Shown here piece after piece: positions 7,028-35,389 of a stretch of 64,000 nucleotides of DNA. Source of the stretch: Corallococcus exercitus (lineage in GTDB: Bacteria > Myxococcota > Myxococcia > Myxococcales > Myxococcaceae); assembly GCF_042231735.1 (NCBI RefSeq), contig NZ_CP102577.1, forward strand, positions 2,783,281-2,847,280. The letters are read 5' to 3'. Position numbers and translations under genes: made by a program. The stretch's first letter is position 1, and each line of letters begins with the position of its first letter. Below the pieces are notes generated by a model. The model did no database searches. It saw only the letters and a program-made list of their open reading frames with translations, and had not been told where the DNA came from.

Positions 7028-7828
7028 ATGCGGTTGAGCCTGCGGCGGACATGGCTTCTCGCGATCACGGTGCTGCTCCAGTCGTGTGGAGGCGCGCACC
7101 GGCGGATTCAGTACGACTTCGACAGCGCGACGAACTCCTGCAGGACCCAGCCCGCCTACTGCGCTCAGGCCGCGGGAGAGGAGGCGGTGATTCCCCGGGC
7201 CGTGCGGACGTTCGCGACAGCGGGAGGCTCCGCGGCGGCGGCCGTGAAGCTCCTGGATGCCGCGCTGAAGCAGCAGGTGAAAAAGGCGCTGGAGGAGTGC
7301 GCGGACAAGGCGCGAGCAGCGGTCATCCTCGCGAACTTCGGGACCCGAAGCCCGACGCCGCAGGAGTGCAAGGAGGAGGTCCGCGACGCACAGGGCCGGA
7401 CCATCACCCGAGCCATCAAGCTCGGAAACGAGATGCACCGGGTCGCCTTGCAGTGCGCCATGGAGAAGCTGAACGAACTCCGTCCGGGTGGTTTCAGTCT
7501 TGAGCCCACGTATCTGTATGACCTGTCCAGTGGGAAGACAACCTGGCTATCACCCGCCGAAGTGGCTCGCATCCGGCAGCGTGGCAGCCTGGGAGAATTG
7601 AAGGGGTCTCTTGTTCCCGACGTGGTCCTTCACTCGGGTGACCCGGCGTGGGTTCAAGATGTTTATGACTTCAAGTTCCCCTGTACGGATATCGACAAAC
7701 GGCCACGTTGGCGAAAATACCCACCGGGACATCCCTATGACGGCTTGACCCAGAATGAGGTCTACCGCCAGGCGTTCGGCCTGAGAGAGGTCCTTCAAGT
7801 GAATCCCTATCTCGGAGCTGGACTGTAA
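7028..7828 (+). CDS. lipoprotein with a C-terminal PD-(D/E)xK-like motif; putative polymorphic nuclease toxin
   Basis: Lipoprotein signal plus lipobox (LLQSC|GG). The C-terminus carries E..(VPDVV)..(DVYDFK), which fits a restriction-endonuclease-fold catalytic core. The gene lies in a locally low-GC stretch (~7.38-8.1 kb). Confidence 0.45.
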   Translation: MRLSLRRTWLLAITVLLQSCGGAHRRIQYDFDSATNSCRTQPAYCAQAAGEEAVIPRAVRTFATAGGSAAAAVKLLDAALKQQVKKALEECADKARAAVILANFGTRSPTPQECKEEVRDAQGRTITRAIKLGNEMHRVALQCAMEKLNELRPGGFSLEPTYLYDLSSGKTTWLSPAEVARIRQRGSLGELKGSLVPDVVLHSGDPAWVQDVYDFKFPCTDIDKRPRWRKYPPGHPYDGLTQNEVYRQAFGLREVLQVNPYLGAGL

Positions 7829-7831
7829 GTC

Positions 7832-8725
7832 ATGAGCCACTCACCACTTCAGATGACGCGTCGAGGTCGAATCGTCACGCAGGTCGGCTTGAGCCTTTGT
7901 TTTTACCTTCCCAAACCCACGTTGGACGTCAATCAGGCGGTTTCTGAATCACTGCAGACGTACCTTCACGCCATCTCGCCCCAGCCGTTCACGCACTACT
8001 CGGATGACGAGGGTGAATGGCAGGAGCTGGACGCAGCCGGCTGGGCTGTGATTCACGAGAATTTACAACAGCCGCTCAGATCAATCGTCTTGCTCACCAA
8101 CGACACCGCCTATCCCAACGGATACGAGTTTCATTACGACGGCAAGGACATCCATGCCCCCATCTTCCGTCGCGACCCAGGTCCCGTGAGCGCGGTTCGA
8201 TTTGTTCTTCCGCTGTCATGGATGAGCACCCACGGACCCGACAGCGTCCGGAAGCTGGCGCTGGCCCTGGCGGCACCGCTGCCATTCAGCTCAGGACACG
8301 CGGGACTGGCCGTCACCGGCTTCCTCGGTGTGGGCTCGGTCACATCGGAGCTGGTTCCCCAATTGGTCCAGTACCCCGGTGTCGACCTCATGGAGCTGGA
8401 TCTGGTCTCCTCGGCGATCGGCACCCGCCTGCGCGTCCCGCACTGGATGACGTTCATCGGCGAGCCTTCGCTGGGCGCCATGGGAGGCGTGGACTTCCTG
8501 CGCTCCCAGCTCCACACGCCGGGCACCACCGTGGAAGCCCTCGACGCGTCCCGGGCGGTCGTCACCCTGGGCCCTGAACCGCTCGCCGGCGGTCCGGACC
8601 AGCCGCTTCTGGCCTACCGGGAGCTGGCCCGTGTCCTGGAGCCCTGGGCCTTCCACGCCACCCAGCGTCCCGCGGACTTTCCCGACGACGACTTCTTCCC
8701 GTGGGACCGCCGGTTCCTCGACTGA
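7832..8725 (+). CDS. cytoplasmic protein of unknown function; putative cognate immunity protein
   Basis: Starts 4 nt after the stop of the putative toxin gene. No signal peptide. Its 5' half is low-GC like the toxin gene. No recognisable catalytic motif. Confidence 0.4.
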   Translation: MSHSPLQMTRRGRIVTQVGLSLCFYLPKPTLDVNQAVSESLQTYLHAISPQPFTHYSDDEGEWQELDAAGWAVIHENLQQPLRSIVLLTNDTAYPNGYEFHYDGKDIHAPIFRRDPGPVSAVRFVLPLSWMSTHGPDSVRKLALALAAPLPFSSGHAGLAVTGFLGVGSVTSELVPQLVQYPGVDLMELDLVSSAIGTRLRVPHWMTFIGEPSLGAMGGVDFLRSQLHTPGTTVEALDASRAVVTLGPEPLAGGPDQPLLAYRELARVLEPWAFHATQRPADFPDDDFFPWDRRFLD

Positions 8726-25964: not shown

Positions 25965-27374
25965 ATGGCCTCGAAGATCAACGACAGCTCGCGTCCCCTC
26001 ACCTCCGTCTCGCGGTTGTCCTCGCAGGACGCCCGGAGCTCGGAGGCGAAGACCCGGAACCGCCCCCTCGCGTGGAAGGACGGCTTCGAGTCCTCCGGGG
26101 CGCGCCCCGGCTCCAAGCTGCCGCAGCTGCCGGCGCCGCCTCCGGTGCTGTCGCTGCCGCCGCCCGCCACCACGACGCCGGTGCCGCCGGAGGCTCCCAC
26201 CGAGCCGCCCGTGTCGGCCGACTCGGATCCGATGACGCACATCGAGTACCTGGCGTCGGACGCGCTGCAGGGACGTGACAGCCCCTCCGCGGGCCTGGAC
26301 GCCGCTTCCGTCTACGTGCAGGCGCACGCGGAGAAGTACGGGCTCGTGGGCCCCAACATCAACAACCCGGAGAACCCCTTCCAGCAGCGCTTCAACGTCT
26401 ACTCGTGGCTGGGCGCGGACAAGGCGGGCGAGGAGGCCGGCGCGGCCCACGCCGGGCACGCCGAGCACAAGGAGTTCGGCCACACCCTGTTCCAGGAGGG
26501 CTTCTACCTGGACGAGAAGATGCCCAGGGACACGCTGAAGCGGCTCAATCAGCAGTACGAGCAGACGATGAAGGCGGCGGGCCAGACGGTGGTGCCGGCG
26601 CGCACGGGCCCGCAGCGCAGCGTGGAGGAGCTCAAGCAGGTGGCCACCGCCACGGGCCAGGCGGTGAACACCATGGCCCTGCTGCCCGGAACCGGCCCGC
26701 ACAAGGACGAGGTCATCGTCGTGATGGCCCACCTGGACCACGTGGGCGTGGACCGCAAGGGCAACGCCTACAACGGCGCGGACGACAACGCGTCCGGCAG
26801 CGCGGTGCTGATGGCGGCGGTGCCGGAGCTGGCGGAGGCCGCGAAGAACGGCAAGCTGGACCGCTCCGTGCTCTTCGTCTGGACGGGCGCGGAGGAGAAG
26901 GGGCTGGTGGGCTCGCAGTACTTCGTGGACCACCCCATCCCCGGCCTGGAGCTGAAGAACATCGCCGGCGTCATCAACACGGACATGGTGGGCCGCTGGG
27001 ATGATCAGCGCCTGTCCGTGGTGGACACCAACACCCGGGGCCAGCCCAACTACTTCCGCGACGTGGTGGACCAGGCGAACCAGCAGCTGGCGGATCCGTT
27101 CGACCGCATCAACCGCGACATCAACGTCTACCGCGACCGGCAGGACGGCGCGTCCTTCGGGCGCAAGGGCGAGGACGTCCTCTTCCTCTTCGAGGGCCTG
27201 TCCAACCCCGAGGGCGGCGGCGACCTCATCCCCGAGTACCACCGGCAGGATGACGACATCGACAAGATCATCGAGGACAACGGCGGCAACAAGCCCCGCC
27301 GCGTGAAGGACCTGCTGCTCAACGTCATCCACCTGGCGGCGAACCGCACGACGGAGCCGCAGCCGCCGAAGTAG
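25965..27374 (+). CDS. M28-family zinc aminopeptidase
   Basis: M28 metal and catalytic motifs (HLDHVG, NGADDNASGSAVLM, GAEEKGLVGS). The start is uncertain; ATG at 25965 chosen. Confidence 0.8.
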   Translation: MASKINDSSRPLTSVSRLSSQDARSSEAKTRNRPLAWKDGFESSGARPGSKLPQLPAPPPVLSLPPPATTTPVPPEAPTEPPVSADSDPMTHIEYLASDALQGRDSPSAGLDAASVYVQAHAEKYGLVGPNINNPENPFQQRFNVYSWLGADKAGEEAGAAHAGHAEHKEFGHTLFQEGFYLDEKMPRDTLKRLNQQYEQTMKAAGQTVVPARTGPQRSVEELKQVATATGQAVNTMALLPGTGPHKDEVIVVMAHLDHVGVDRKGNAYNGADDNASGSAVLMAAVPELAEAAKNGKLDRSVLFVWTGAEEKGLVGSQYFVDHPIPGLELKNIAGVINTDMVGRWDDQRLSVVDTNTRGQPNYFRDVVDQANQQLADPFDRINRDINVYRDRQDGASFGRKGEDVLFLFEGLSNPEGGGDLIPEYHRQDDDIDKIIEDNGGNKPRRVKDLLLNVIHLAANRTTEPQPPK

Positions 27375-27434
27375 CCGCTCGCGGCACCTTCCGCCGGAAG
27401 GGAGCCCTTCCGGCGGGAGCTTCCAGCGGGCCTG

Positions 27435-28319
27435 CTAGGCGGCCAGCTTCTCCCCGCTGCCTTCCACGGGACGGCCGGAGAGCGCGGCGACCTCATGGTC
27501 GCTCAGCACGAGCTTCTCCTCGGAGCCGCGCCAGACGAACGGGATGCCGGGCTGGCGGTACAGGTTCGCGGGGATCTCCTGCGCCAGCTGCGCGTGCAGC
27601 TCCGGCAGCTTGGACCAGTGCAGACCGTGCCGCGTGTGATGCGCGGTGTGGTAGCCCAGGTTGCCCGTCATCAGGTTGTAGCCCTTGTGGAGGATGTTGT
27701 ACGAGGCCTCCGAGTGGTTGGCCGTCTCCAGCCCCACGTGGTGGAAGTACGTGGCCCAGGTCGTCACGTAGAGCGACGCCATCATGGGCAAGAGGAACAC
27801 GAAGAGCGCGTTGTAGGGGTTCACCCAGAACAGGCCCGCCAGCAGCACCACCTGGAGCGCGGCCATCCACACGAACACGCGCAGCGCCTTGGGGTGATGC
27901 TTCTTCCCCACCTGGAACGCTCGCGGGTACGCGGTCAGCGCCGTGCTCAGCGAGTACTCCACCTCCGCCATCGTGGAGCCGTCAGCGCGCTTCCAGCGCG
28001 ACTCGTCCTGCGTCTGGTCCAGGTAGTTCTTGTGGTGGCCCAGCACGTGGTGGAGGAACCACGCCTGCGACGTCACGCCCGTCTGGAAGCCGAAGACGAT
28101 CTCCAACAGGCGGTTGGGCAGCGCGTGCTTGAAGAAGGACAGGTGCTGGTGGTGGTGGTTCCACGAGCAGATCCATCCCTTGGGGATGATGCCCAGCCCG
28201 AACCACAGCACCGGCACCCACCAGCTGCGCGCCGTGAGGAACACCGTCACGTCGAGCGCGAACACACTCAGGAACATCAGGACCGGGATGCGATCTTCAG
28301 GGTGCCGGAACAGGGTCAT
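27435..28319 (-). CDS. small membrane desaturase/hydroxylase-like di-iron enzyme (fatty acid desaturase superfamily)
   Basis: His boxes (NHHHQH, HHVLGHH, HTAHH) and 4-5 TM helices. 294 aa. Confidence 0.75.
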   Translation of the reverse strand: MTLFRHPEDRIPVLMFLSVFALDVTVFLTARSWWVPVLWFGLGIIPKGWICSWNHHHQHLSFFKHALPNRLLEIVFGFQTGVTSQAWFLHHVLGHHKNYLDQTQDESRWKRADGSTMAEVEYSLSTALTAYPRAFQVGKKHHPKALRVFVWMAALQVVLLAGLFWVNPYNALFVFLLPMMASLYVTTWATYFHHVGLETANHSEASYNILHKGYNLMTGNLGYHTAHHTRHGLHWSKLPELHAQLAQEIPANLYRQPGIPFVWRGSEEKLVLSDHEVAALSGRPVEGSGEKLAA

Positions 28320-28478
28320 GCGCCTTCCACGACAAGAGGAGCCAAGGGAGAAATGCCGATTTTCTGACTGTAGGACGGCAGCCCCCACCCCGAACAGCCC
28401 ACCCTCGCCTGCCTGCACGTTCCACACTGACGGTAAACCACGTAGTCACGTTGAACTTGTCTTTCCATTATTCCAAGA

Positions 28479-28499
28479 ATCACAGTCCTGTCTTGTGAT
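28479..28499. promoter_or_regulatory. perfect inverted repeat ATCACA-N9-TGTGAT in the divergent promoter region between the small desaturase and the heme-oxygenase-like gene
   Basis: Seen directly in the sequence. It lies in a locally AT-richer intergenic region. Confidence 0.45.
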
Positions 28500-28541
28500 A
28501 AACGCCGACCCAGCCCTTTTGGACCCAACCTGGAGGCGGCA

Positions 28542-29204
28542 ATGCGGAACCAGACCATCGAGGCGGCGCTCGCGAAGAACCCCCACCGTGAGCAGCTCAT
28601 CAAGCATCGGTTCTTCGAGGTGGTGGATGAGAAGGCCTTCAGCCGCGACCAGGCGGAGATGGTGCTGGGGCAGTGGTGGCACCCCCTGCACTACTTCCCC
28701 GACTTCCTGAGCAAGCTCATTGCCGTCTGTCCGCAGATGGAGATGAAGACGGCGGTGACCCACATCCTGAACCAGGAGGTGGGCGAGGGAGACCCGGCGC
28801 GCGCGCACGAGCGCTTCTTCATCCAGACGATGACGGACGCTGGCTTCACGAAGGCGGGCGTGTCGGAGGCGGACATGACGCCCGCCACGCGCCGGCTCAT
28901 CGACGGCTACCAGCGCGCCACGGACAACCACCTCACCGGCCTGGGCTTCCTCTACGGCACGGAGGTGGCGGACCTCACCATGGTGGCCAAGCTGGGCAAG
29001 CTGGTGCGCCGCACCACGGGCCTCAAGGCCCTGCCCTGGGTGGACATCCACGTGAAGCAGGAGCCGGACCACGTGGAGACGGCCGGCCATACGGTGGGCC
29101 TCCAGTACACCGACGCGGAGCTGGCCACCATCACCCGCGGCGCCGAGGAGATGTGGCAGCTGTGGGTGGGATTCTTCGAGGAGCTGCGCAACCGCGTCGT
29201 CTGA
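28542..29204 (+). CDS. heme-oxygenase-like fold protein (TenA/PqqC/CADD-like iron-containing redox enzyme family)
   Basis: All-helical, 220 aa, with E/H-containing helices (EVGEGDPARAHERFF). Divergently transcribed from the desaturase. Confidence 0.55.
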   Translation: MRNQTIEAALAKNPHREQLIKHRFFEVVDEKAFSRDQAEMVLGQWWHPLHYFPDFLSKLIAVCPQMEMKTAVTHILNQEVGEGDPARAHERFFIQTMTDAGFTKAGVSEADMTPATRRLIDGYQRATDNHLTGLGFLYGTEVADLTMVAKLGKLVRRTTGLKALPWVDIHVKQEPDHVETAGHTVGLQYTDAELATITRGAEEMWQLWVGFFEELRNRVV

Positions 29205-29288
29205 GCGGCCCCTTCACGTCAAGCGCAACCCCCTGGAATCCGTACGTTTTCGCACGGAACACTGGCGAATCTCTCCAGGTAGGGTAGT

Positions 29289-29309
29289 CACTCCCGCGTC
29301 ACGGGAGTG
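29289..29309. promoter_or_regulatory. inverted repeat CACTCCCG-cgtca-CGGGAGTG between the heme-oxygenase-like gene and the DUF47-PiT operon. It could be a terminator hairpin or an operator.
   Basis: Seen directly. No downstream U-tract. Confidence 0.35.
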
Positions 29310-29382
29310 TCACCCCCATGCGGCGCCACCCTCCTCCCGTGGCGGACCGCGCCTGTCCCTCCAGGCGCCGAGGGAGATCCCC

Positions 29383-30009
29383 ATGCTCGAAAAGCTGATG
29401 CCGAAGTCGGACGAGTTCTTCGACGACTTCGACGCGCAATGCGCCAGGACCGTCGAGGGAGCGAAGCTCCTGCACGAGCTCCTGGCGGACTTCCGTGACG
29501 TGCCCGCGCGCGTCCAGGCCCTCAAGGACGTGGAGCACAAGGGCGACGAGGTCACCCACACGGCCTTCAACCGGCTCCACCAGCAGTTCATCACCCCGTT
29601 CGACCGGGGGCAGATCCACACGCTCCTGTCGCGCATCGACGACGTGCTGGACCTGACCAACGCGGCGGCGGCGCGCCTGCTCTACTACGAGATTGAGACC
29701 AGCCGGCCGGACGCCACGGAGCTGGCGCGGCTCCTGGTGCTCTCCACGCAGAAGGTGCAGGAGGTCGTCGCGGCGCTGCGGCTCATCAAGAAGCCGGAGC
29801 AGATCCTCGCGGGCTGCAAGGAGATCAAGCACCTGGAGACCCAGGCGGATGAAGTCCTGCGCGCGGGCATGGGCCGGCTGTTCAAGAGCGGCGTGGATAC
29901 CCTGACCATCATCAAGTGGAAGGAGATCTACGACCTCATCGAGACGGCCACCGACAAGTGCCAGGGCGTGGCCAACGTCATCGAAGGCGTCGTGCTGGAG
30001 CACTCCTGA
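29383..30009 (+). CDS. DUF47 / TIGR00153 phosphate-transport regulator-like protein (PhoU-like fold)
   Basis: Typical DUF47 sequence (HKGDEVTH...ETQADEV). AGGGAG RBS at -7. Precedes the PiT gene by 1 nt. Confidence 0.85.
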   Translation: MLEKLMPKSDEFFDDFDAQCARTVEGAKLLHELLADFRDVPARVQALKDVEHKGDEVTHTAFNRLHQQFITPFDRGQIHTLLSRIDDVLDLTNAAAARLLYYEIETSRPDATELARLLVLSTQKVQEVVAALRLIKKPEQILAGCKEIKHLETQADEVLRAGMGRLFKSGVDTLTIIKWKEIYDLIETATDKCQGVANVIEGVVLEHS

Positions 30010-30010
30010 G

Positions 30011-31036
30011 ATGCTGCTCGCAGCGGTCGTCTCCATCGTCGTCGTCGCGCTCATCTTCGACTTCATCAACGGGTTCCACGACGCGGCGAACTCCATCGCC
30101 ACCGTGGTGTCCACGCGCGTGCTGTCGCCGAACCTGGCCGTGGCATGGGCCGCGTTCTTCAACTTCATCGCGGCGTTCGCGGGCGGCGTGCACGTGGCCA
30201 ACACCATGGGCAAGGGCATCATCAACTTCGAGATGCTCCGCGCGGCCGGCCCCACCGCGGTGCTGCTGGTCGTCTTCTCGTCGCTGATGGGCGCCATCGT
30301 CTGGAACCTGCTCACCTGGTGGTGGGGGCTGCCCTCGTCGTCGTCGCACGCGCTGGCGGGCGGGATGATTGGCGCCACGCTGCCCGTGCTGGGCTTCCAG
30401 GGGCTGGTGGGCAGCGGCATCGCGCGCATCGCGGCCTTCATCGTGCTGTCGCCGCTCATCGGCATGACGCTGGGCATCGGGATGATGCTGGCCAGCACCT
30501 GGGCGGTGCACCGTCAGACGCCGCTGCGGGTGGACACCTGGTTCCGCCGGCTGCAGCTGGTGTCGTCCGCCATCTTCTCCTTCAGCCACGGCACCAACGA
30601 CGCGCAGAAGGTCATGGGCATCATCGCGGTGGTGCTCTTCGGCACCATCTGGCGCGACCGGCCGTTCCACATCGACTGGTGGATGATCATCTCCTGCCAC
30701 GCGGCCATCGCGCTGGGCACGTTCTTCGGCGGCTGGCGCATCATCCGCACCATGGGCCACAGCCTCACGAAGCTGGCGCCCATTGGCGGCTTCAGCGCGG
30801 AGACGGGCGGCGGCGTCACCATCATCGCGCTGGCGGAACTGGGCATCCCCGTCTCCACCACGCACACCATCACGGGCGCCATCGTCGGCGTGGGGTCCAC
30901 GCGCGGCTGGCGCGCCGTGAAGTGGGGCACCGCCGGCCGCATCATCTGGGCGTGGGTGTTCACCATCCCCGCCGCCGCGCTGGTGTCCGTCATCGTCTAC
31001 GGACTCACGCTGGCGGTGGTGCGGCTGGTGGGCTGA
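30011..31036 (+). CDS. inorganic phosphate transporter, PiT family
   Basis: Repeated PiT signature (GFHDAANSIATVV and a second NDAQK-containing repeat). 10+ TM helices. Confidence 0.9.
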   Translation: MLLAAVVSIVVVALIFDFINGFHDAANSIATVVSTRVLSPNLAVAWAAFFNFIAAFAGGVHVANTMGKGIINFEMLRAAGPTAVLLVVFSSLMGAIVWNLLTWWWGLPSSSSHALAGGMIGATLPVLGFQGLVGSGIARIAAFIVLSPLIGMTLGIGMMLASTWAVHRQTPLRVDTWFRRLQLVSSAIFSFSHGTNDAQKVMGIIAVVLFGTIWRDRPFHIDWWMIISCHAAIALGTFFGGWRIIRTMGHSLTKLAPIGGFSAETGGGVTIIALAELGIPVSTTHTITGAIVGVGSTRGWRAVKWGTAGRIIWAWVFTIPAAALVSVIVYGLTLAVVRLVG

Positions 31037-31087: not shown

Positions 31088-32866
31088 CTACCGGACGTTG
31101 AGCGCCGACGGCGTCCCGCCCACGGACGGCGGGACGAAGGGCACCACCTTCTTGTTCTGCCACTGGACCAGCTTCAGCGACGGGTCCTCCAGCGGCACGT
31201 CGAAGGTGTAGGAGATGCGCGTGGGGAAGTTCCCGTCCATCTCCTCGATGCGAATCTTCAGGCCCTTCATGTCGAACTCCTGCCCCAGGGCCACCGGGTG
31301 GCGCGCGGCGCGGTGGATGCGCTCCTCGATGGAGTCCAGGAAGTGGCCGCCCTTGGGGAGCGACAGCTCCAGGGAGTTGGGCCCGGTGCGCGTCACCTTC
31401 TGCTCGTTGAGCGAATAGGACAGCACCCACCAGGCCTTCGGCAGCGGCATGCCCGTGGACCACCAGCGCACGGAGCCGTAGATGCCGATGATGCCGTTGG
31501 GGGCGTTGAGCACCACCAGCCGCTGCTCGGGCAGCTTCGACTCGTCCAGGGCCTCCTCGTAGCGCGCCTGCACGCGCGCCATGAGGGCGTCCGTCTGCAC
31601 GTAGGCCTCCATGGTCTGCCACCAGACGTAGGGCGCGGCCACCACGTGCAGCAGGGCCATCACCGCGGCGCCGGCCAGCACCGCCCCCGCGCGGAACGTG
31701 CGCGCCCGGCCCCGCCACGCCTGGCGCAGCACCACGGCCATGCCCACCGCCATGCCAAGGCTGGGCACGATGAGCGTGCGCGAGCCGGCGAACGCGGAGT
31801 TGGCCAGCCACGTGGACACGAACGCGCCCGTCAGCATCCAGCCCACCGTGCGCCGCTCCGCGGCCTCCAGCTGGGGCCACACGCCCCACACGAGCAGCGC
31901 GAACAGCGTCAGCCCCGCGGCGCCCAGGATGGTGAACAGGGGCACCAGCGACTGGTCGAAGATGAAGTCCGGGGGCGCGTTCAGCGTCAGGCCCGCGATG
32001 GCGGCCGGGACGCGGGTGAGCATGGCCTTGAACCAGTCCACCGGCGTTCCCACGGCGTCCAGGTACATGTCCGAGGCGCCCGCGCCGTAGCCCAGCGCGC
32101 GGTACAGCACGAAGTAGCAGGCCATCAGCACGCCGAAGGGGATGAGCCCCTTGAGCTTGTCCTTCGCCTGCCCCGGCCCGGAGAAGGCCTCGTAGGCCAG
32201 CACGTACGGGCTGAGGATGACCATGGTCTCGCCGCACAGGAGCGCCAGCGTGAAGGACACCAGCGCGCCCACCAGGAAGTTCGTGCGCTTCTCCTCGCGC
32301 CACTTCACGTGGAAGTAGAGGCCGAGGATGCCGAAGAGCAGCGACATCACCACGCTGCGGTACGACAGCCAGCCCAGCACCGCCGAGTGCGAGCCCCAGA
32401 TGGCGAAGAGGAACATCGACACGCCCGCCAGCGCCGTGGGCAGCACGCGCTTGAGCAGCACGCCCGCCAGCACCACCAGGCCCACGTACCAGAGCACCGA
32501 GTGCAGCAGGTAGCCCGCGGCGACGCGGTTGTAGAGCAGGTGATCCAGTCCGTAGAGCAGGCTGCCCAGGGGCCGGAAGAACGAGACGCGCACCGTGGGC
32601 TCCACCCACCACGGGAAGACGCCCACCTCCGCCAGCCGCAGCGTGTGCTCCGGGATGCCGGTGGCCGTGCGGTACACGTCCAGGGGCGTGTTGCCCAGGG
32701 GCGCGGGCGGCGGCACGTTGTCCCAGACGCCCAGCCAGATGTAGTCATCCGGCATGAAACCCACGCGCAGTGCCATCAAGCCCAGCACCAGCGCGAGCAC
32801 GGTGGAGATCCAAAAGTAACGTTTAAACGGCCAACCCGGGGCGGCTGGCGGGGGAGAGGTATCCAT
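31088..32866 (-). CDS. polytopic membrane protein with a C-terminal soluble domain; possibly a GT-C-type glycosyltransferase-like protein
   Basis: About 12 hydrophobic helices in the first ~420 aa, then a ~170-aa hydrophilic domain. The competing ORFs 31005..32612(-) and 31298..32905(+) are R/G/A-rich artefacts. Confidence 0.55.
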   Translation of the reverse strand: MDTSPPPAAPGWPFKRYFWISTVLALVLGLMALRVGFMPDDYIWLGVWDNVPPPAPLGNTPLDVYRTATGIPEHTLRLAEVGVFPWWVEPTVRVSFFRPLGSLLYGLDHLLYNRVAAGYLLHSVLWYVGLVVLAGVLLKRVLPTALAGVSMFLFAIWGSHSAVLGWLSYRSVVMSLLFGILGLYFHVKWREEKRTNFLVGALVSFTLALLCGETMVILSPYVLAYEAFSGPGQAKDKLKGLIPFGVLMACYFVLYRALGYGAGASDMYLDAVGTPVDWFKAMLTRVPAAIAGLTLNAPPDFIFDQSLVPLFTILGAAGLTLFALLVWGVWPQLEAAERRTVGWMLTGAFVSTWLANSAFAGSRTLIVPSLGMAVGMAVVLRQAWRGRARTFRAGAVLAGAAVMALLHVVAAPYVWWQTMEAYVQTDALMARVQARYEEALDESKLPEQRLVVLNAPNGIIGIYGSVRWWSTGMPLPKAWWVLSYSLNEQKVTRTGPNSLELSLPKGGHFLDSIEERIHRAARHPVALGQEFDMKGLKIRIEEMDGNFPTRISYTFDVPLEDPSLKLVQWQNKKVVPFVPPSVGGTPSALNVR

Positions 32867-33086
32867 GTTTCAAAGATCTATCAGCACGGCCCCCACGCGA
32901 GATAGGTCCTCCTGGGTCGTCCGCTGACACCGGAAACACGCCCAGTGCGGTGCGCGCGGCGGAGATCCTTTGCCAGTGCCCGGACTCCGGGTGATCCTCC
33001 GCCGACGAAGGGGGACGCAGTCCGGCAGGTGCATTCACGCACGGGCGCGGCCCGTTTCCATCCGCGCCGCCGCCGGGCCCGCACGC

Positions 33087-34559
33087 ATGCGCATCGCCAT
33101 CATCGCCACGTACACCCATCCGACCCGCCTGCGAATCAAGGAACCCTCCATCATGCAGTCCTCGGTGCCGGAGCTCATCGCGGGCCTGTGCCCGGAGCAC
33201 GCCGAGGTGGAGATCTTCAACGAGAAGGAGGCGGACCTGCCGTTGGACCGGCACTGGGACCTGGTCTTCTTCTCGTACCTGCACTCGTACTACGAGCACA
33301 CGAAGGTCCTCTCCACCCTCTTCCGCCAGCGCGGGATGACGACGGTGGCGGGCGGCCGGCACGCGGGGCACTTCCCCGACGACGCGGCGAAGTACTTCGA
33401 CGCGGTCATCACCGGGGAGCCGGAGTCCAACGTGCCCGCGCTCATCGCGGACTTCGAGAAGGGTGAATTGAAGCCGCGCTACAGCCTGCCGTCCCAGGGC
33501 GCCGCCGCCATCCGGCCGTACCGCTACGAGCTCATCGACTTCACGCACAACAAGGTGCGCCTGCCGGGCATCGAGGCGTCGCGCGGCTGCCCCTTCACCT
33601 GCAACTTCTGCGTGCTCACCGGCCACGAGCGCTACCGCTTCCGGCCCGTCCCGGAGGTCATCGACGAGATCCAGACGCGCATGCGCTGGAACCCGAACTT
33701 CCTGGGGCTGATGGGGGACGCGTTCGTCTTCCTGGACAACAACCTGGGCGGCTCGCCCAAGTACCTGCGCGCGCTGTGCGAAGCGCTCATCCCCCTGAAG
33801 AAGACCTGGGGCTGCGCCCTCACCTTCAACGTGCTCAAGGACGAGTCGCTGGTGAAGCTGATGGCGAAGGCGGGCTGCCGCTACGTCTACACCGGCCTGG
33901 AGTCGCTCAACCCGGACTCGATCAAGGCGATGAACAAGGGCCAGAACAAGCTGTCGGAGGTGGACGCCGTCATCCGCCGCGTCTTCTCCGCCGGCATCCT
34001 CCTGTCCTTCGGGCTCATCGTCGGCTCGGACGGGGACACCAACGAGTACCTGCACCGGCTGCCGGAGTACCTGGCGGACCTGAAGTACTTCTCCGTCACG
34101 TTCCTGGGCATCGTGTGCCCCTACCCGGAGACGCCCTTCTTCCGCGAGCTCCAGGCGCAAGACAGGCTCCTGCCCGGCACCACCAGCCGCGACTACGACG
34201 GCTACACGCTGTGCCACCGGCCCAAGCAGCTGCACGCGTCGGAGGTGGTGGAGCACTTCCAGCGGCTGTGCCACACGCTGGGGAGCCTGCCCAACGTCGC
34301 GCGGCACTACGCGTCCAAGCTGATGATGAGCGACCTGCCCCGCTACAAGCAGACCATCCTCTTCTCCGGCCCCGAAATCGTCAGCATCCGCAACCCGGTG
34401 AAGAACCCGGCGCGCCGCTACATCGCGGGCCTGGACGCGATTGAAGCCTGGGACGCGGAGCAGATGGACAGGCTGGGCCTCACGCCGCAGGTCTTGACTG
34501 GACCCGGGACGGCAGGCGCACGTCCCACGCCAGTCCCAGGCCTCGCAGCGCACGGATGA
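33087..34559 (+). CDS. B12-binding-domain radical SAM enzyme
   Basis: N-terminal cobalamin-binding-like Rossmann segment, then a radical-SAM Cx3Cx2C motif (CPFTCNFC) and glycine-rich SAM motifs (FLDNNLGG). Confidence 0.8.
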   Translation: MRIAIIATYTHPTRLRIKEPSIMQSSVPELIAGLCPEHAEVEIFNEKEADLPLDRHWDLVFFSYLHSYYEHTKVLSTLFRQRGMTTVAGGRHAGHFPDDAAKYFDAVITGEPESNVPALIADFEKGELKPRYSLPSQGAAAIRPYRYELIDFTHNKVRLPGIEASRGCPFTCNFCVLTGHERYRFRPVPEVIDEIQTRMRWNPNFLGLMGDAFVFLDNNLGGSPKYLRALCEALIPLKKTWGCALTFNVLKDESLVKLMAKAGCRYVYTGLESLNPDSIKAMNKGQNKLSEVDAVIRRVFSAGILLSFGLIVGSDGDTNEYLHRLPEYLADLKYFSVTFLGIVCPYPETPFFRELQAQDRLLPGTTSRDYDGYTLCHRPKQLHASEVVEHFQRLCHTLGSLPNVARHYASKLMMSDLPRYKQTILFSGPEIVSIRNPVKNPARRYIAGLDAIEAWDAEQMDRLGLTPQVLTGPGTAGARPTPVPGLAAHG

Positions 34560-35310
34560 AGAGCCAGCCCGGGTCCCACTGCCACCACACCCAGCCGTGC
34601 CGCGCGGACGCGGGGAAGGCGTGGTGGTTGTTGTGCCAGCCCTCGCCCAGCGCCAGCACGCTCACCCACCACACGTTGCGGCTGTGGTCGCGCGTGTCGT
34701 GGACGCGGTGGCCGAACGCCGCGTGGCACACGGAGTTCACCGCGTAGGTGCTCTGCATCCAGCACACCACCGGCAGGAAGAAGTACGCGGGCACCGTGCG
34801 CCAGCCGAACGTCAGCCCCACGAAGAGCACCGCCAGCACCTGCGGCGCGATGCGGTAGCGCAGGAGCCAGTGGTAGTAGCCGTCGTTCGCCATGTCGCGG
34901 CACCAGGTGCGCCAGCCGTCCTCCTCGGTGGAGGCCTCGTTGAGGATCCACCCCATGTGCGCGTACCAGAAGCCCCGCAGGGGCGAGTGCACGTCCCCTT
35001 CCGCGTCCGCCTTCGCGTGGTGCAGCCGGTGGTTGGCGGCCCACAGGAGCGGGCTGCCCTGCGCCGTCAGCATGGCCACCGTCACCAGCGCGTACTCCAC
35101 CCAGCGGGGGCACGCGAAGGCGCGGTGGCACAGGAGGCGGTGCAGCCCCACCGTCGTGCCCAGGCCAATGGACACGTACACGGCCAGCGCCACCGGCAGC
35201 GCGTACGGCGGCCAGGGCAGGAAGAACGCCAGCGCGGCCAGCGCGTGCACCACGAGCATGTAGCCGACGATGACGGGACTGAGCTGGAAGCGGAGCGGTG
35301 CGGTGGTCAT
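34480..35310 (-). CDS. acyl-CoA delta-9 desaturase (stearoyl-CoA desaturase family)
   Basis: His boxes (HRLLCHR, HRLHH, HNNHH) and the characteristic 4-TM topology. Its 3' end overlaps the radical-SAM gene convergently by ~80 nt. Confidence 0.85.
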   Translation of the reverse strand: MTTAPLRFQLSPVIVGYMLVVHALAALAFFLPWPPYALPVALAVYVSIGLGTTVGLHRLLCHRAFACPRWVEYALVTVAMLTAQGSPLLWAANHRLHHAKADAEGDVHSPLRGFWYAHMGWILNEASTEEDGWRTWCRDMANDGYYHWLLRYRIAPQVLAVLFVGLTFGWRTVPAYFFLPVVCWMQSTYAVNSVCHAAFGHRVHDTRDHSRNVWWVSVLALGEGWHNNHHAFPASARHGWVWWQWDPGWLFIRALRGLGLAWDVRLPSRVQSRPAA

Positions 35311-35389
35311 GGCCCGGTGCGGATGCGAGGAAGAAGCACGGAAGTCTAGGGGCCCCGCCTGACGGGACAAGGAATGCGCTCCCCGCGCG

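Follow-up and report, generated by a model that had tools for sequence, protein, structure and literature searches.

Heme-oxygenase-like di-iron oxidases (HDOs) have repeatedly been a source of new chemistry, as in the cases of BesC, SznF and PolF. BesC is the 4-chloro-allylglycine synthase of Streptomyces cattleya, and CADD (CT610) is the self-sacrificing p-aminobenzoate (pABA) synthase of Chlamydia, in which Tyr27 is the residue that is cleaved to yield pABA. The Pseudomonas 1-undecene synthase UndA is the one HDO known to act on fatty acids. MboA has been described as a further HDO with new chemistry (PMC13185094).

Here we analyzed a 64-kb stretch of Corallococcus DNA (the window), in which an HDO gene and a gene for a membrane di-iron desaturase/oxygenase are transcribed divergently. 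The two ORFs, the spacer between them and an inverted repeat in this spacer had been listed in a preliminary description of the stretch, and all of them were found at the positions given below. In that description the two genes were read as a co-regulated pathway for an unusual lipid (terminal olefin or oxidised acyl), with the palindrome as operator. The fold assignments made there stood, but the co-regulated lipid pathway with a shared operator did not. We consider it likely that desaturase and HDO each stand as an independent unit of one gene and came to lie head-to-head only in Corallococcus, that the HDO comes from an NRPS-associated clade and that the palindrome is not a shared operator.

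Results

The HDO gene (28542-29204, plus strand) encodes a protein of 220 aa, which matched the Pfam family PF14518 (Haem_oxygenas_2) with E = 1.7e-28 and 100.1 bits against a threshold of 28.9. The AF2 model of the protein was all-helical with a pLDDT of 89, and CADD, BesC, UndA, PolF and HrmI were matched in Foldseek at TM 0.68-0.79 and probability 1.0, with at most 19% identity. These results bear out the heme-oxygenase-like fold that had been proposed from the sequence. A check of the di-iron ligands had also been suggested, and all six, E79 (or E82), H89, E141, H170, E174 and H177, were present and invariant among 17 family members. Together they form a 3-His/3-carboxylate dinuclear ligand set that is collinear with the ligand pattern of BesC. 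As the ligands were complete and invariant, the protein was assigned to the HDOs rather than to TenA or PqqC. The clade has in addition an invariant motif of its own, GQWWHPLHYFP. Within Corallococcus the dN/dS of the HDO gene was 0.07-0.13, and this purifying selection indicates that the gene is still functional. No signature of recent transfer was found in the composition, with GC3 of 0.95 for the HDO gene, 0.92 for the desaturase gene and similar values for the neighbours.

The desaturase gene (27435-28319, minus strand) encodes a protein of 294 aa from its ATG, which belongs to the FA_desaturase family and has an AlkB-like fold. The mechanically called ORF is longer and extends to a GTG at 28427 (330 aa); in the homologues the start is at MTLFR, and they span the 294-aa form in full (100%). 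The protein matched PF00487 (FA_desaturase) with E = 9e-29 and 101.4 bits against a cut-off of 29.7. Its His boxes NHHHQH (54-59), HHVxGHH (90-96), HH (193-194) and HTAHH (224-228) were all invariant in an 18-sequence alignment, and the AF2 model (pLDDT 91) contained long TM helices, in agreement with the His-box membrane enzyme described previously. Among solved structures FtAlkB (8sbb) was the top match with E = 3.6e-4 and TM 0.57, and no match to PDB sequences was obtained with either the family profile or the single sequence. Across the genera of Myxococcaceae the identity of the desaturase was 70-93%, and the homologues of M. xanthus and Cystobacter have neighbours different from those in the window. 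A search of the literature on the M. xanthus homologue MXAN_1742 (desaturase and lipoxygenase) gave nothing usable. Paralogy of the two desaturase genes of the window was rejected with a BLASTP E of 0.57. The plasmalogen desaturase CarF/TMEM189 was also rejected, as no match to its family was detected and PF00487 was the only family matched at E ≤ 0.01. No crt genes, the context looked for in the case of CrtW, lie near the desaturase gene in the window.

Co-conservation of the two genes was then analyzed from both sides. In a genome scan for the HDO, 80 HDO-carrying genomes were collected and searched for the desaturase with tblastn. The desaturase adjoined the HDO only in Corallococcus (7 loci, with an eighth cut at a contig end); it was absent beside the HDO in Citreicoccus, whose HDO is 85% identical, in Pyxidicoccus (80%) and at about 70 other loci. 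From the desaturase side, neighbours were analyzed at 82 loci of a metagenome scan for the family, with a host GC of 36-72%. An HDO was found within about 7 kb of the desaturase-family gene at 0 of the 82 loci, and no neighbour of any kind recurred among them. Co-conservation, which the preliminary description had named as a point on which its pathway would stand or fall, was thus missing at HDO loci and desaturase loci alike.

The divergent spacer (28320-28541, 222 bp, no strand) had a GC of 0.56 as compared to 0.71 for the whole window, and the intergenic region is therefore AT-richer, as had been noted. Eight Corallococcus species have kept the two genes in divergent orientation together with much of the spacer sequence, so that, judged from sequence, there is room for shared regulation in this genus. 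No regulator gene was seen next to the pair with Pfam in the window neighbourhood, and an Rfam scan of 27300-29500 gave no match.

Comparison with Corallococcus sp. BB11-1 showed that the HDO gene lies in a segment of 822 bp (28401-29222, no strand), consisting of 141 bp upstream, the gene itself and 18 bp downstream. This segment was present in 8 Corallococcus species and missing at the same site in BB11-1, which has identical synteny and a desaturase gene but neither the HDO nor the palindrome. In a blastn comparison of window positions 27000-30100 with the BB11-1 locus L165, 27476-28400 aligned with L165 7844-6920 and 29223-30100 with L165 6863-5994, with 822 bp between the two blocks in the window versus 56 bp in L165. 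No remnant of the HDO was detected in L165 by tblastn. Of the spacer only 28320-28400 is common to the window and BB11-1. Direct repeats were looked for on either side of the segment as a sign of mobile insertion, and none was convincing. The alignments indicate that the juxtaposition of desaturase and HDO is due to a lineage-specific indel.

The inverted repeat ATCACA-N9-TGTGAT (ATCACAGTCCTGTCTTGTGAT; 28479-28499, no strand) occurs as a sole copy in the 64 kb and falls within this HDO-specific segment. It was perfect in two of nine Corallococcus sequences, the window and L011. In the seven others the left arm reads ATCGCA, ATCTCA, ATAGCA or ATCGCT, the right arm never varies and no compensatory change accompanies the drift of the left arm. 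The repeat was not conserved in Citreicoccus or Pyxidicoccus. When the 222-bp spacer was shuffled and inverted repeats with perfect 6-bp arms 0-20 nt apart were counted, 0.94 repeats were expected by chance and at least one was found in 52% of the shuffles; the window as a whole has about 3 such repeats per 222 bp. With its place in the indel segment, its uncompensated drift and its chance-level occurrence, the repeat does not behave as the shared operator for which it had been taken, and it is most likely a chance repeat in the upstream segment of the HDO gene.

The right half of the repeat overlaps the block TTGTGATAAAC (28493-28503, plus strand), which is invariant in Corallococcus. This block lies about 40 nt before the HDO start codon and probably represents a -10-like element of the extended type (TGnGATAAA), although a consensus promoter scan made no call at it. 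A GGAGG ribosome-binding site of the HDO gene is located at 28532-28536 (plus strand). The palindrome, whose conserved right half overlaps this probable -10 element of the HDO gene, is in our reading not a shared operator. On the desaturase strand a sigma-70-like promoter match (AAGACA-16-AATAAT with TG before the -10; 28467-28494, minus strand) also overlaps the repeat, with 1 match found as compared to 0.1 expected in shuffles. It is not a general promoter of the desaturase, because the segment is absent from BB11-1.

The neighbours of the HDO in other genomes were clustered after filtering of the genes by GC3. Outside Corallococcus and Citreicoccus an NRPS/PKS gene was found within 6 kb of the HDO at 66 of 71 loci and within 600 bp at 50 of the 71. 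None was found near the HDO at the nine Corallococcus and Citreicoccus loci, and there is no NRPS within the 64-kb window. The NRPS-adjacent members come from Acidobacteriota, Eisenbacteria, Dyella, Kofleriaceae and Pyxidicoccus. Based on Pfam, the NRPS neighbours comprise C-A-T modules, a TE domain and a FAAL-like start, and are accompanied by MFS, methyltransferase, CmlA-like hydroxylase and luciferase-like monooxygenase genes. The NRPSs beside the clade begin with the FAAL-like domain, those of Dyella with a condensation domain; the Pyxidicoccus NRPS has an apparent condensation-domain start, its first C domain being deduced from domain counts. By their domain content these NRPSs look like lipopeptide synthetases. 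In a NJ tree of the HDO, the NRPS-linked Pyxidicoccus sequence branched outside a pair of Citreicoccus and Corallococcus. The NRPS adjoining the Pyxidicoccus HDO showed generic NRPS similarity of 44-50% to Corallococcus, where the listed proteins were all shorter than about 1,925 aa.

Discussion

To judge from its neighbours elsewhere and from the tree, the HDO of the window belongs to an uncharacterised clade of NRPS-associated enzymes, from whose usual setting it has been detached. Because the clade adjoins NRPS genes, its ancestral role was most likely the synthesis or tailoring of building blocks for nonribosomal (lipo)peptides. We infer that in the lineage of Citreicoccus and Corallococcus the gene became detached from the NRPS, in this direction, and came to lie upstream of a DUF47-Pit operon. 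As it is under purifying selection, the detached HDO would serve a distant cluster in trans or have taken on a new role. The lipopeptide type of the neighbouring NRPSs leaves room for a fatty-acyl substrate, as for UndA. With its own motif GQWWHPLHYFP, a Phe in place of the CADD Tyr, all six ligands and lipopeptide-type NRPSs for neighbours in at least five lineages of bacteria, the clade may possibly carry out oxidative chemistry that is new to HDOs, and the detached Corallococcus/Citreicoccus copy may have a role independent of NRPSs, conceivably on a fatty-acyl substrate; we put forward both ideas tentatively.

The operon downstream of the HDO (29383-31036, plus strand), identified with Pfam and NCBIfam, encodes a DUF47 (PhoU_div) protein and a PHO4/Pit-type phosphate transporter, and it seems very unlikely that the HDO is functionally tied to it, whether as a co-transcribed gene or as a participant in the homeostasis of phosphate or metals. 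The same-strand order HDO-DUF47-PHO4 is common to Corallococcus and Citreicoccus with 85-90% identity for all three genes, and it stays while the upstream neighbour of the HDO differs between the two genera. Neither a terminator-like site nor a promoter was found between HDO and DUF47. However, the gap between the two genes measures 178 bp, of which the last 160 bp are about 89% conserved (aligned block) in the HDO-less BB11-1, and there the DUF47-Pit pair persists without the HDO. The adjacency is moreover absent in Pyxidicoccus and all 70 other loci, and no HDO is known to act in the homeostasis of phosphate or metals.

The lipid pathway of the preliminary description we regard as very unlikely. 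It would fit with the divergent arrangement and spacer kept in eight Corallococcus species, with the promoter-like site on the desaturase strand that overlaps the repeat, with the lipopeptide-looking NRPSs beside the HDO clade and with the structural match (TM 0.68-0.74) to UndA, an HDO that decarboxylates fatty acids. Against this, the two genes do not co-occur outside Corallococcus in either direction, in BB11-1 the desaturase is found with neither HDO nor palindrome, the left arm of a repeat that is expected by chance drifts uncompensated, and the pair has no adjacent regulator gene. The missing co-conservation largely refutes this reading.

A CADD-type self-sacrificing p-aminobenzoate synthase, serving folate or an NRPS starter unit, is highly improbable. 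CADD (8va9, 1rcw) was the top Foldseek match of the HDO with TM 0.75-0.78, a 4-aminobenzoate synthase chain was the second-best profile match (E = 8.5e-7) and TIGR04305 was the sole NCBIfam match, but at 44.4 bits against a cut-off of 200, and the identity to CADD was 13-15%. The Tyr27 of CT610 aligns with Phe25 of the HDO, and this Phe was invariant in 17 of 17 aligned members. The HDO lysines 150 and 153, which we take to lie near the expected place of the CADD amino donor Lys152 (the CT610-HDO alignment stops at residue 131, short of Lys152 of CT610), are replaced by Gly, Asn, Ala, Val, Thr or Gln in most relatives. Lastly, a metal-free TenA thiaminase II or PqqC, an outcome that the preliminary description had itself named as contrary to its proposal, is next to impossible. 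In its favor, close homologues are annotated as 'TenA family transcriptional regulator' or 'PQQ biosynthesis protein C' and TenA structures were among the Foldseek matches. Against it, these TenA matches had lower TM scores and 10-12% identity, PF03070 was not matched by the HDO at E ≤ 0.01, all six di-iron ligands are invariant and no thi or pqq genes lie near the HDO in the window.

We thus favor two independent single-gene units. The HDO is a soluble oxidase that folds into a helical bundle and has its dinuclear 3-His/3-carboxylate site complete, and in this site O2 may be activated at an Fe2 (or Fe/Mn) centre for the oxidation of a small-molecule substrate. The desaturase is an integral-membrane di-iron enzyme of the AlkB/FADS type, a core gene of Myxococcaceae that is stand-alone and widespread elsewhere. 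It would use O2 and an unlinked electron donor for the desaturation or oxygenation of membrane-bound acyl chains.

The locus is a clean case of genus-level synteny and a 6-bp palindrome that together mimic a functional pair. Our analysis points to an uncharacterised HDO clade with a tight link to NRPSs, and since the orphan copy is a small, soluble and conserved HDO from a myxobacterium that can be cultured, it makes a reasonable subject for enzymology.

As compared to described systems, the desaturase resembles AlkB (FtAlkB, PDB 8sbb and 8f6t) most, which is its best solved-structure match and belongs with it to the PF00487 membrane FADS superfamily. The motifs follow what we take to be the order of AlkB, with HxxxH, HxxxHH, an extra (Y/F)HHxGL motif and HxxHH. 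The desaturase is however about 100 residues shorter, 18-19% identical and, unlike AlkB, without adjacent rubredoxin or reductase genes. CarF/TMEM189 and UndB, the candidates named earlier, are likewise His-rich di-iron membrane enzymes, but CarF/TMEM189 falls into a Pfam family other than PF00487. With UndA (PDB 4wwj, 6p5q) the HDO has the fold in common at TM 0.68-0.74, but the identity is 11-12% with no match at the sequence level, and the neighbours of the HDO clade are NRPS genes and not lipid genes, in contrast to UndA. CADD/CT610 is of similar size (about 220-230 aa) and has almost collinear ligand positions. The closest counterpart is BesC (PDB 7twa), the best sequence-profile match of the HDO with E = 6.7e-8. 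The HDO is only 16-18% identical to BesC-type enzymes, carries the clade-specific motif, and its copy in the window, unlike them, has no surrounding biosynthetic cluster. However, it has the fold of BesC and of the amino-acid-modifying HDOs HrmI/BelK, PolF and MboA (TM 0.70-0.78), the BesC pattern E...H / E / H-x3-E-x2-H aligns with it residue for residue, and most members of its clade are housed in peptide natural-product clusters, as are the BesC-type HDOs.

Gene calls and identity of the two proteins

The desaturase ORF spans 27435-28427 on the minus strand of the window (GC 0.71). The ATG at 28319 was preferred as its start (27435-28319, 294 aa, MTLFRH...), because every homologue starts there, the nearest having 294 aa at 100% coverage. 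The gap to the M28 peptidase gene is just 60 bp. The gene for the heme-oxygenase-like di-iron oxidase (HDO) lies on the plus strand at 28542-29204 (220 aa) and has a native codon composition (GC3 0.95). The 222-bp spacer between the two genes (GC 0.56) contains the palindrome ATCACAGTCCTGTCTTGTGAT at 28479-28499; genes, spacer and palindrome were all found where the preliminary description had placed them. Against Corallococcus proteins, the two window proteins showed 98% and 93% identity.

As judged from alignments and predicted structures, both proteins carry the folds and residues of di-iron enzymes that activate O2, and the folds first assigned to them were confirmed with Pfam, alignments and models. 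The HDO matched Haem_oxygenas_2 with 100 bits. Residues E79, E82, H89, E141, H170, E174 and H177 were invariant among 17 sequences of 51-98% identity, so the di-iron ligands proposed for checking are present, and in a profile alignment they coincided with the BesC ligand pattern E...H / E / H-x3-E-x2-H. The AF2 model (pLDDT 89) matched CADD, a Nostoc CADD-like protein, BesC, UndA, PolF and HrmI (TM 0.7-0.79, identity ≤19%). A CADD-type pABA synthase was rejected, as TIGR04305 scored 44 bits (cut-off 200) and the position of CT610 Tyr27, the residue sacrificed for pABA, is an invariant Phe in the family. TenA and PqqC were rejected on the Pfam match and the invariant metal ligands. On this evidence the protein is a true di-metal HDO. 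It adds a member to an established superfamily and falls in a clade without a characterised representative.

FA_desaturase (PF00487) was the sole Pfam match of the desaturase (101 bits), and no NCBIfam model matched. Its His boxes (NHHHQH, HHVxGHH, HTAHH) and an extra FHHxGL motif were invariant in an 18-sequence alignment. The AlphaFold model was confident (pLDDT 91), with the AlkB alkane monooxygenase (8sbb) as the only significant match among solved structures (E=3.6e-4, TM 0.57). A CarF/TMEM189 identity was rejected, there being no Pfam match to that family at E≤0.01. The protein is an AlkB/FADS-type membrane di-iron enzyme, a putative desaturase and an ordinary, uncharacterised member of PF00487.

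The palindrome and other regulatory sequence

The palindrome had been described as an operator-like element shared by both genes; a shared operator was not supported, since the left arm varies and such a repeat is expected by chance. The right arm, inside the invariant TTGTGATAAAC, was unchanged in all nine Corallococcus spacers. The left arm read ATCACA in two, ATCGCA in four, and ATCTCA, ATAGCA and ATCGCT in one each, leaving the palindrome perfect in 2/9 and a compensating change in none. In Citreicoccus and Pyxidicoccus no recognisable copy lay upstream of the HDO. In shuffled spacers the mean number of perfect 6-bp inverted repeats (spacer 0-20) was 0.94, and 52% held at least one; the expectation of 0.04 per 64 kb holds only for this palindrome, with its exact sequence and spacing specified in advance. 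Some 40 nt before the HDO ATG, the invariant right half reads TGnGATAAA, a putative extended -10 element of the HDO gene, and GGAGG follows at 28532-28536. A promoter consensus scan did not report this element; its promoter-like match lay on the other strand (28494-28467). No Rfam element or terminator was present.

An imperfect hairpin (GGGTAGTCACTCCCG-N5-CGGGAGTGTCACCCC) was seen at 29282-29316, some 70 nt before the DUF47-Pit phosphate transporter operon. It is kept in the HDO-less locus of Corallococcus sp. BB11-1 and may help to regulate the operon.

Co-conservation of the desaturase and the HDO

A co-regulated lipid pathway of the two enzymes had been proposed, and absence of co-conservation, which the preliminary description itself had named as evidence against it, is what we found from the HDO side, from the desaturase side and within the genus. 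In a tblastn search of 80 HDO loci (one genome per species) the desaturase adjoined the HDO only in Corallococcus (loci L005 and L007-L012; L006 ends at a contig edge). It was not found beside the HDO in Citreicoccus inhibens or Pyxidicoccus caerfyrddinensis (HDO 85% and 80% identical), nor in about 70 other loci from Thermoanaerobaculia, other Acidobacteriota, Eisenbacteria, Dyella and Kofleriaceae. Conversely, 80 metagenome desaturase loci and the Myxococcus xanthus and Cystobacter homologues had no HDO homologue within ~7 kb, and no neighbour recurred in more than six of these 82. The Cystobacter homologue (77%) is surrounded by polysaccharide genes, and that of M. xanthus (73%) is preceded by two lipoxygenases and a P450. 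Judged by gene neighbourhoods, the desaturase and the HDO are not genomically coupled and form no system; a functional pairing was not supported.

In M. xanthus (JABFNT010000006; locus L001, 247-6846) the desaturase shares an overlapping stop/start with the cytochrome P450 gene. The arrangement resembles an operon of the oxylipin type, a likelier setting for specialised lipid metabolism than the window locus.

The BB11-1 locus has the gene order of the window (SLT, hypothetical, M28 peptidase, desaturase, DUF47, Pit, radical SAM, second desaturase, cyclase) and lacks the HDO. A window segment of 822 bp (28401-29222) is replaced by 56 bp in BB11-1; it comprises the HDO gene with the 141 bp in front of it, palindrome included, and the 18 bp behind it. 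BB11-1 either lost the HDO or never gained it at this site. A polytopic membrane protein of 592 aa (31088-32866, minus strand, between Pit and the radical SAM gene), with no match in Pfam or NCBIfam, is kept in eight Corallococcus loci and missing at that position in BB11-1, and is therefore a second indel in the neighbourhood. In C. llansteffanensis (L011) and Corallococcus sp. CA053C (L012) the spacer has an extra insertion of ~117 bp (at about 7700-7850 of these loci), so it is structurally plastic within the genus.

BB11-1 also has a Macro-domain gene between the desaturase and M28 peptidase genes (L165, 7914-8582) that is not at that position in the window. At 32970-35370 in the window the second FA_desaturase gene (296 aa) is convergent with a gene for a radical SAM protein of the B12-binding type (529 aa), which matched lipid, hopanoid and BchE-type radical SAM models weakly; BB11-1 has this pair too. 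This second desaturase is DesA-family-like (90 bits) and unrelated to the first (BLASTP E=0.57).

Genomic context and history of the HDO clade

Outside Corallococcus and Citreicoccus the recurrent HDO neighbour was a multimodular NRPS, sometimes PKS, found within 6 kb in 66/71 loci and within 600 bp in 50. It is either divergent from the HDO or follows it directly in the same orientation, in some loci with stop and start codons overlapping. By Pfam these NRPSs have C-A-T modules, a TE domain and a FAAL-like loading domain. The FAAL-like domain stands at the start in Thermoanaerobaculia; the Dyella NRPS has a condensation domain first (residues 21-452), and domain counts suggest the same start in Pyxidicoccus. 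Other neighbours were an MFS transporter, a methyltransferase, a DegT aminotransferase, a CmlA-like beta-hydroxylase and a luciferase-like monooxygenase. The Dyella, Rudaea and Kofleriaceae clusters (Dyella locus L068, 2959-8687; L072, L075, L078, L080) also have an encapsulin-like gene of the Phage_capsid family, flanked on one side by a gene for a DegT aminotransferase and on the other by SDR and methyltransferase genes.

In a neighbour-joining tree the Myxococcaceae HDOs formed one clade, with Pyxidicoccus (HDO-MFS-NRPS) branching first, then Citreicoccus (allantoinase, flavin-oxidoreductase-like gene, HDO-DUF47-Pit) and after it Corallococcus. By parsimony, the NRPS linkage is ancestral, the HDO moved beside DUF47-Pit in the ancestor of Citreicoccus and Corallococcus, and the desaturase became its upstream neighbour in Corallococcus only. 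With a dN/dS of 0.07-0.13 among Corallococcus species and all ligands kept, the orphan copy is not decaying. In C. inhibens the gene divergent from the HDO (L013, 6290-7735) encodes a protein of 481 aa that matched NAD(P)H/flavin oxidoreductases weakly and could be a redox partner, because the HDO MboA has a dedicated reductase (PMC13185094).

Proposed functions and comparison with known enzymes

The desaturase would act by itself on acyl chains in the membrane, served by a generic electron donor. The HDO would oxidise a small-molecule substrate that, in the native context of its clade, may feed or decorate a nonribosomal (lipo)peptide; the Corallococcus enzyme would work in trans or on something else. 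The HDO fold can handle fatty acids, as in UndA. With this precedent and the FAAL-like or condensation domains at the start of adjacent NRPSs, a fatty-acyl substrate is possible, which does not rescue the link to the neighbouring desaturase.

For a specialist the window itself holds no surprise. The HDO clade is a fair target for enzymology, because HDOs near peptide-forming enzymes, such as MboA, still yield new chemistry (PMC13185094). Among characterised proteins BesC is closest to the HDO, at 16-18% identity.
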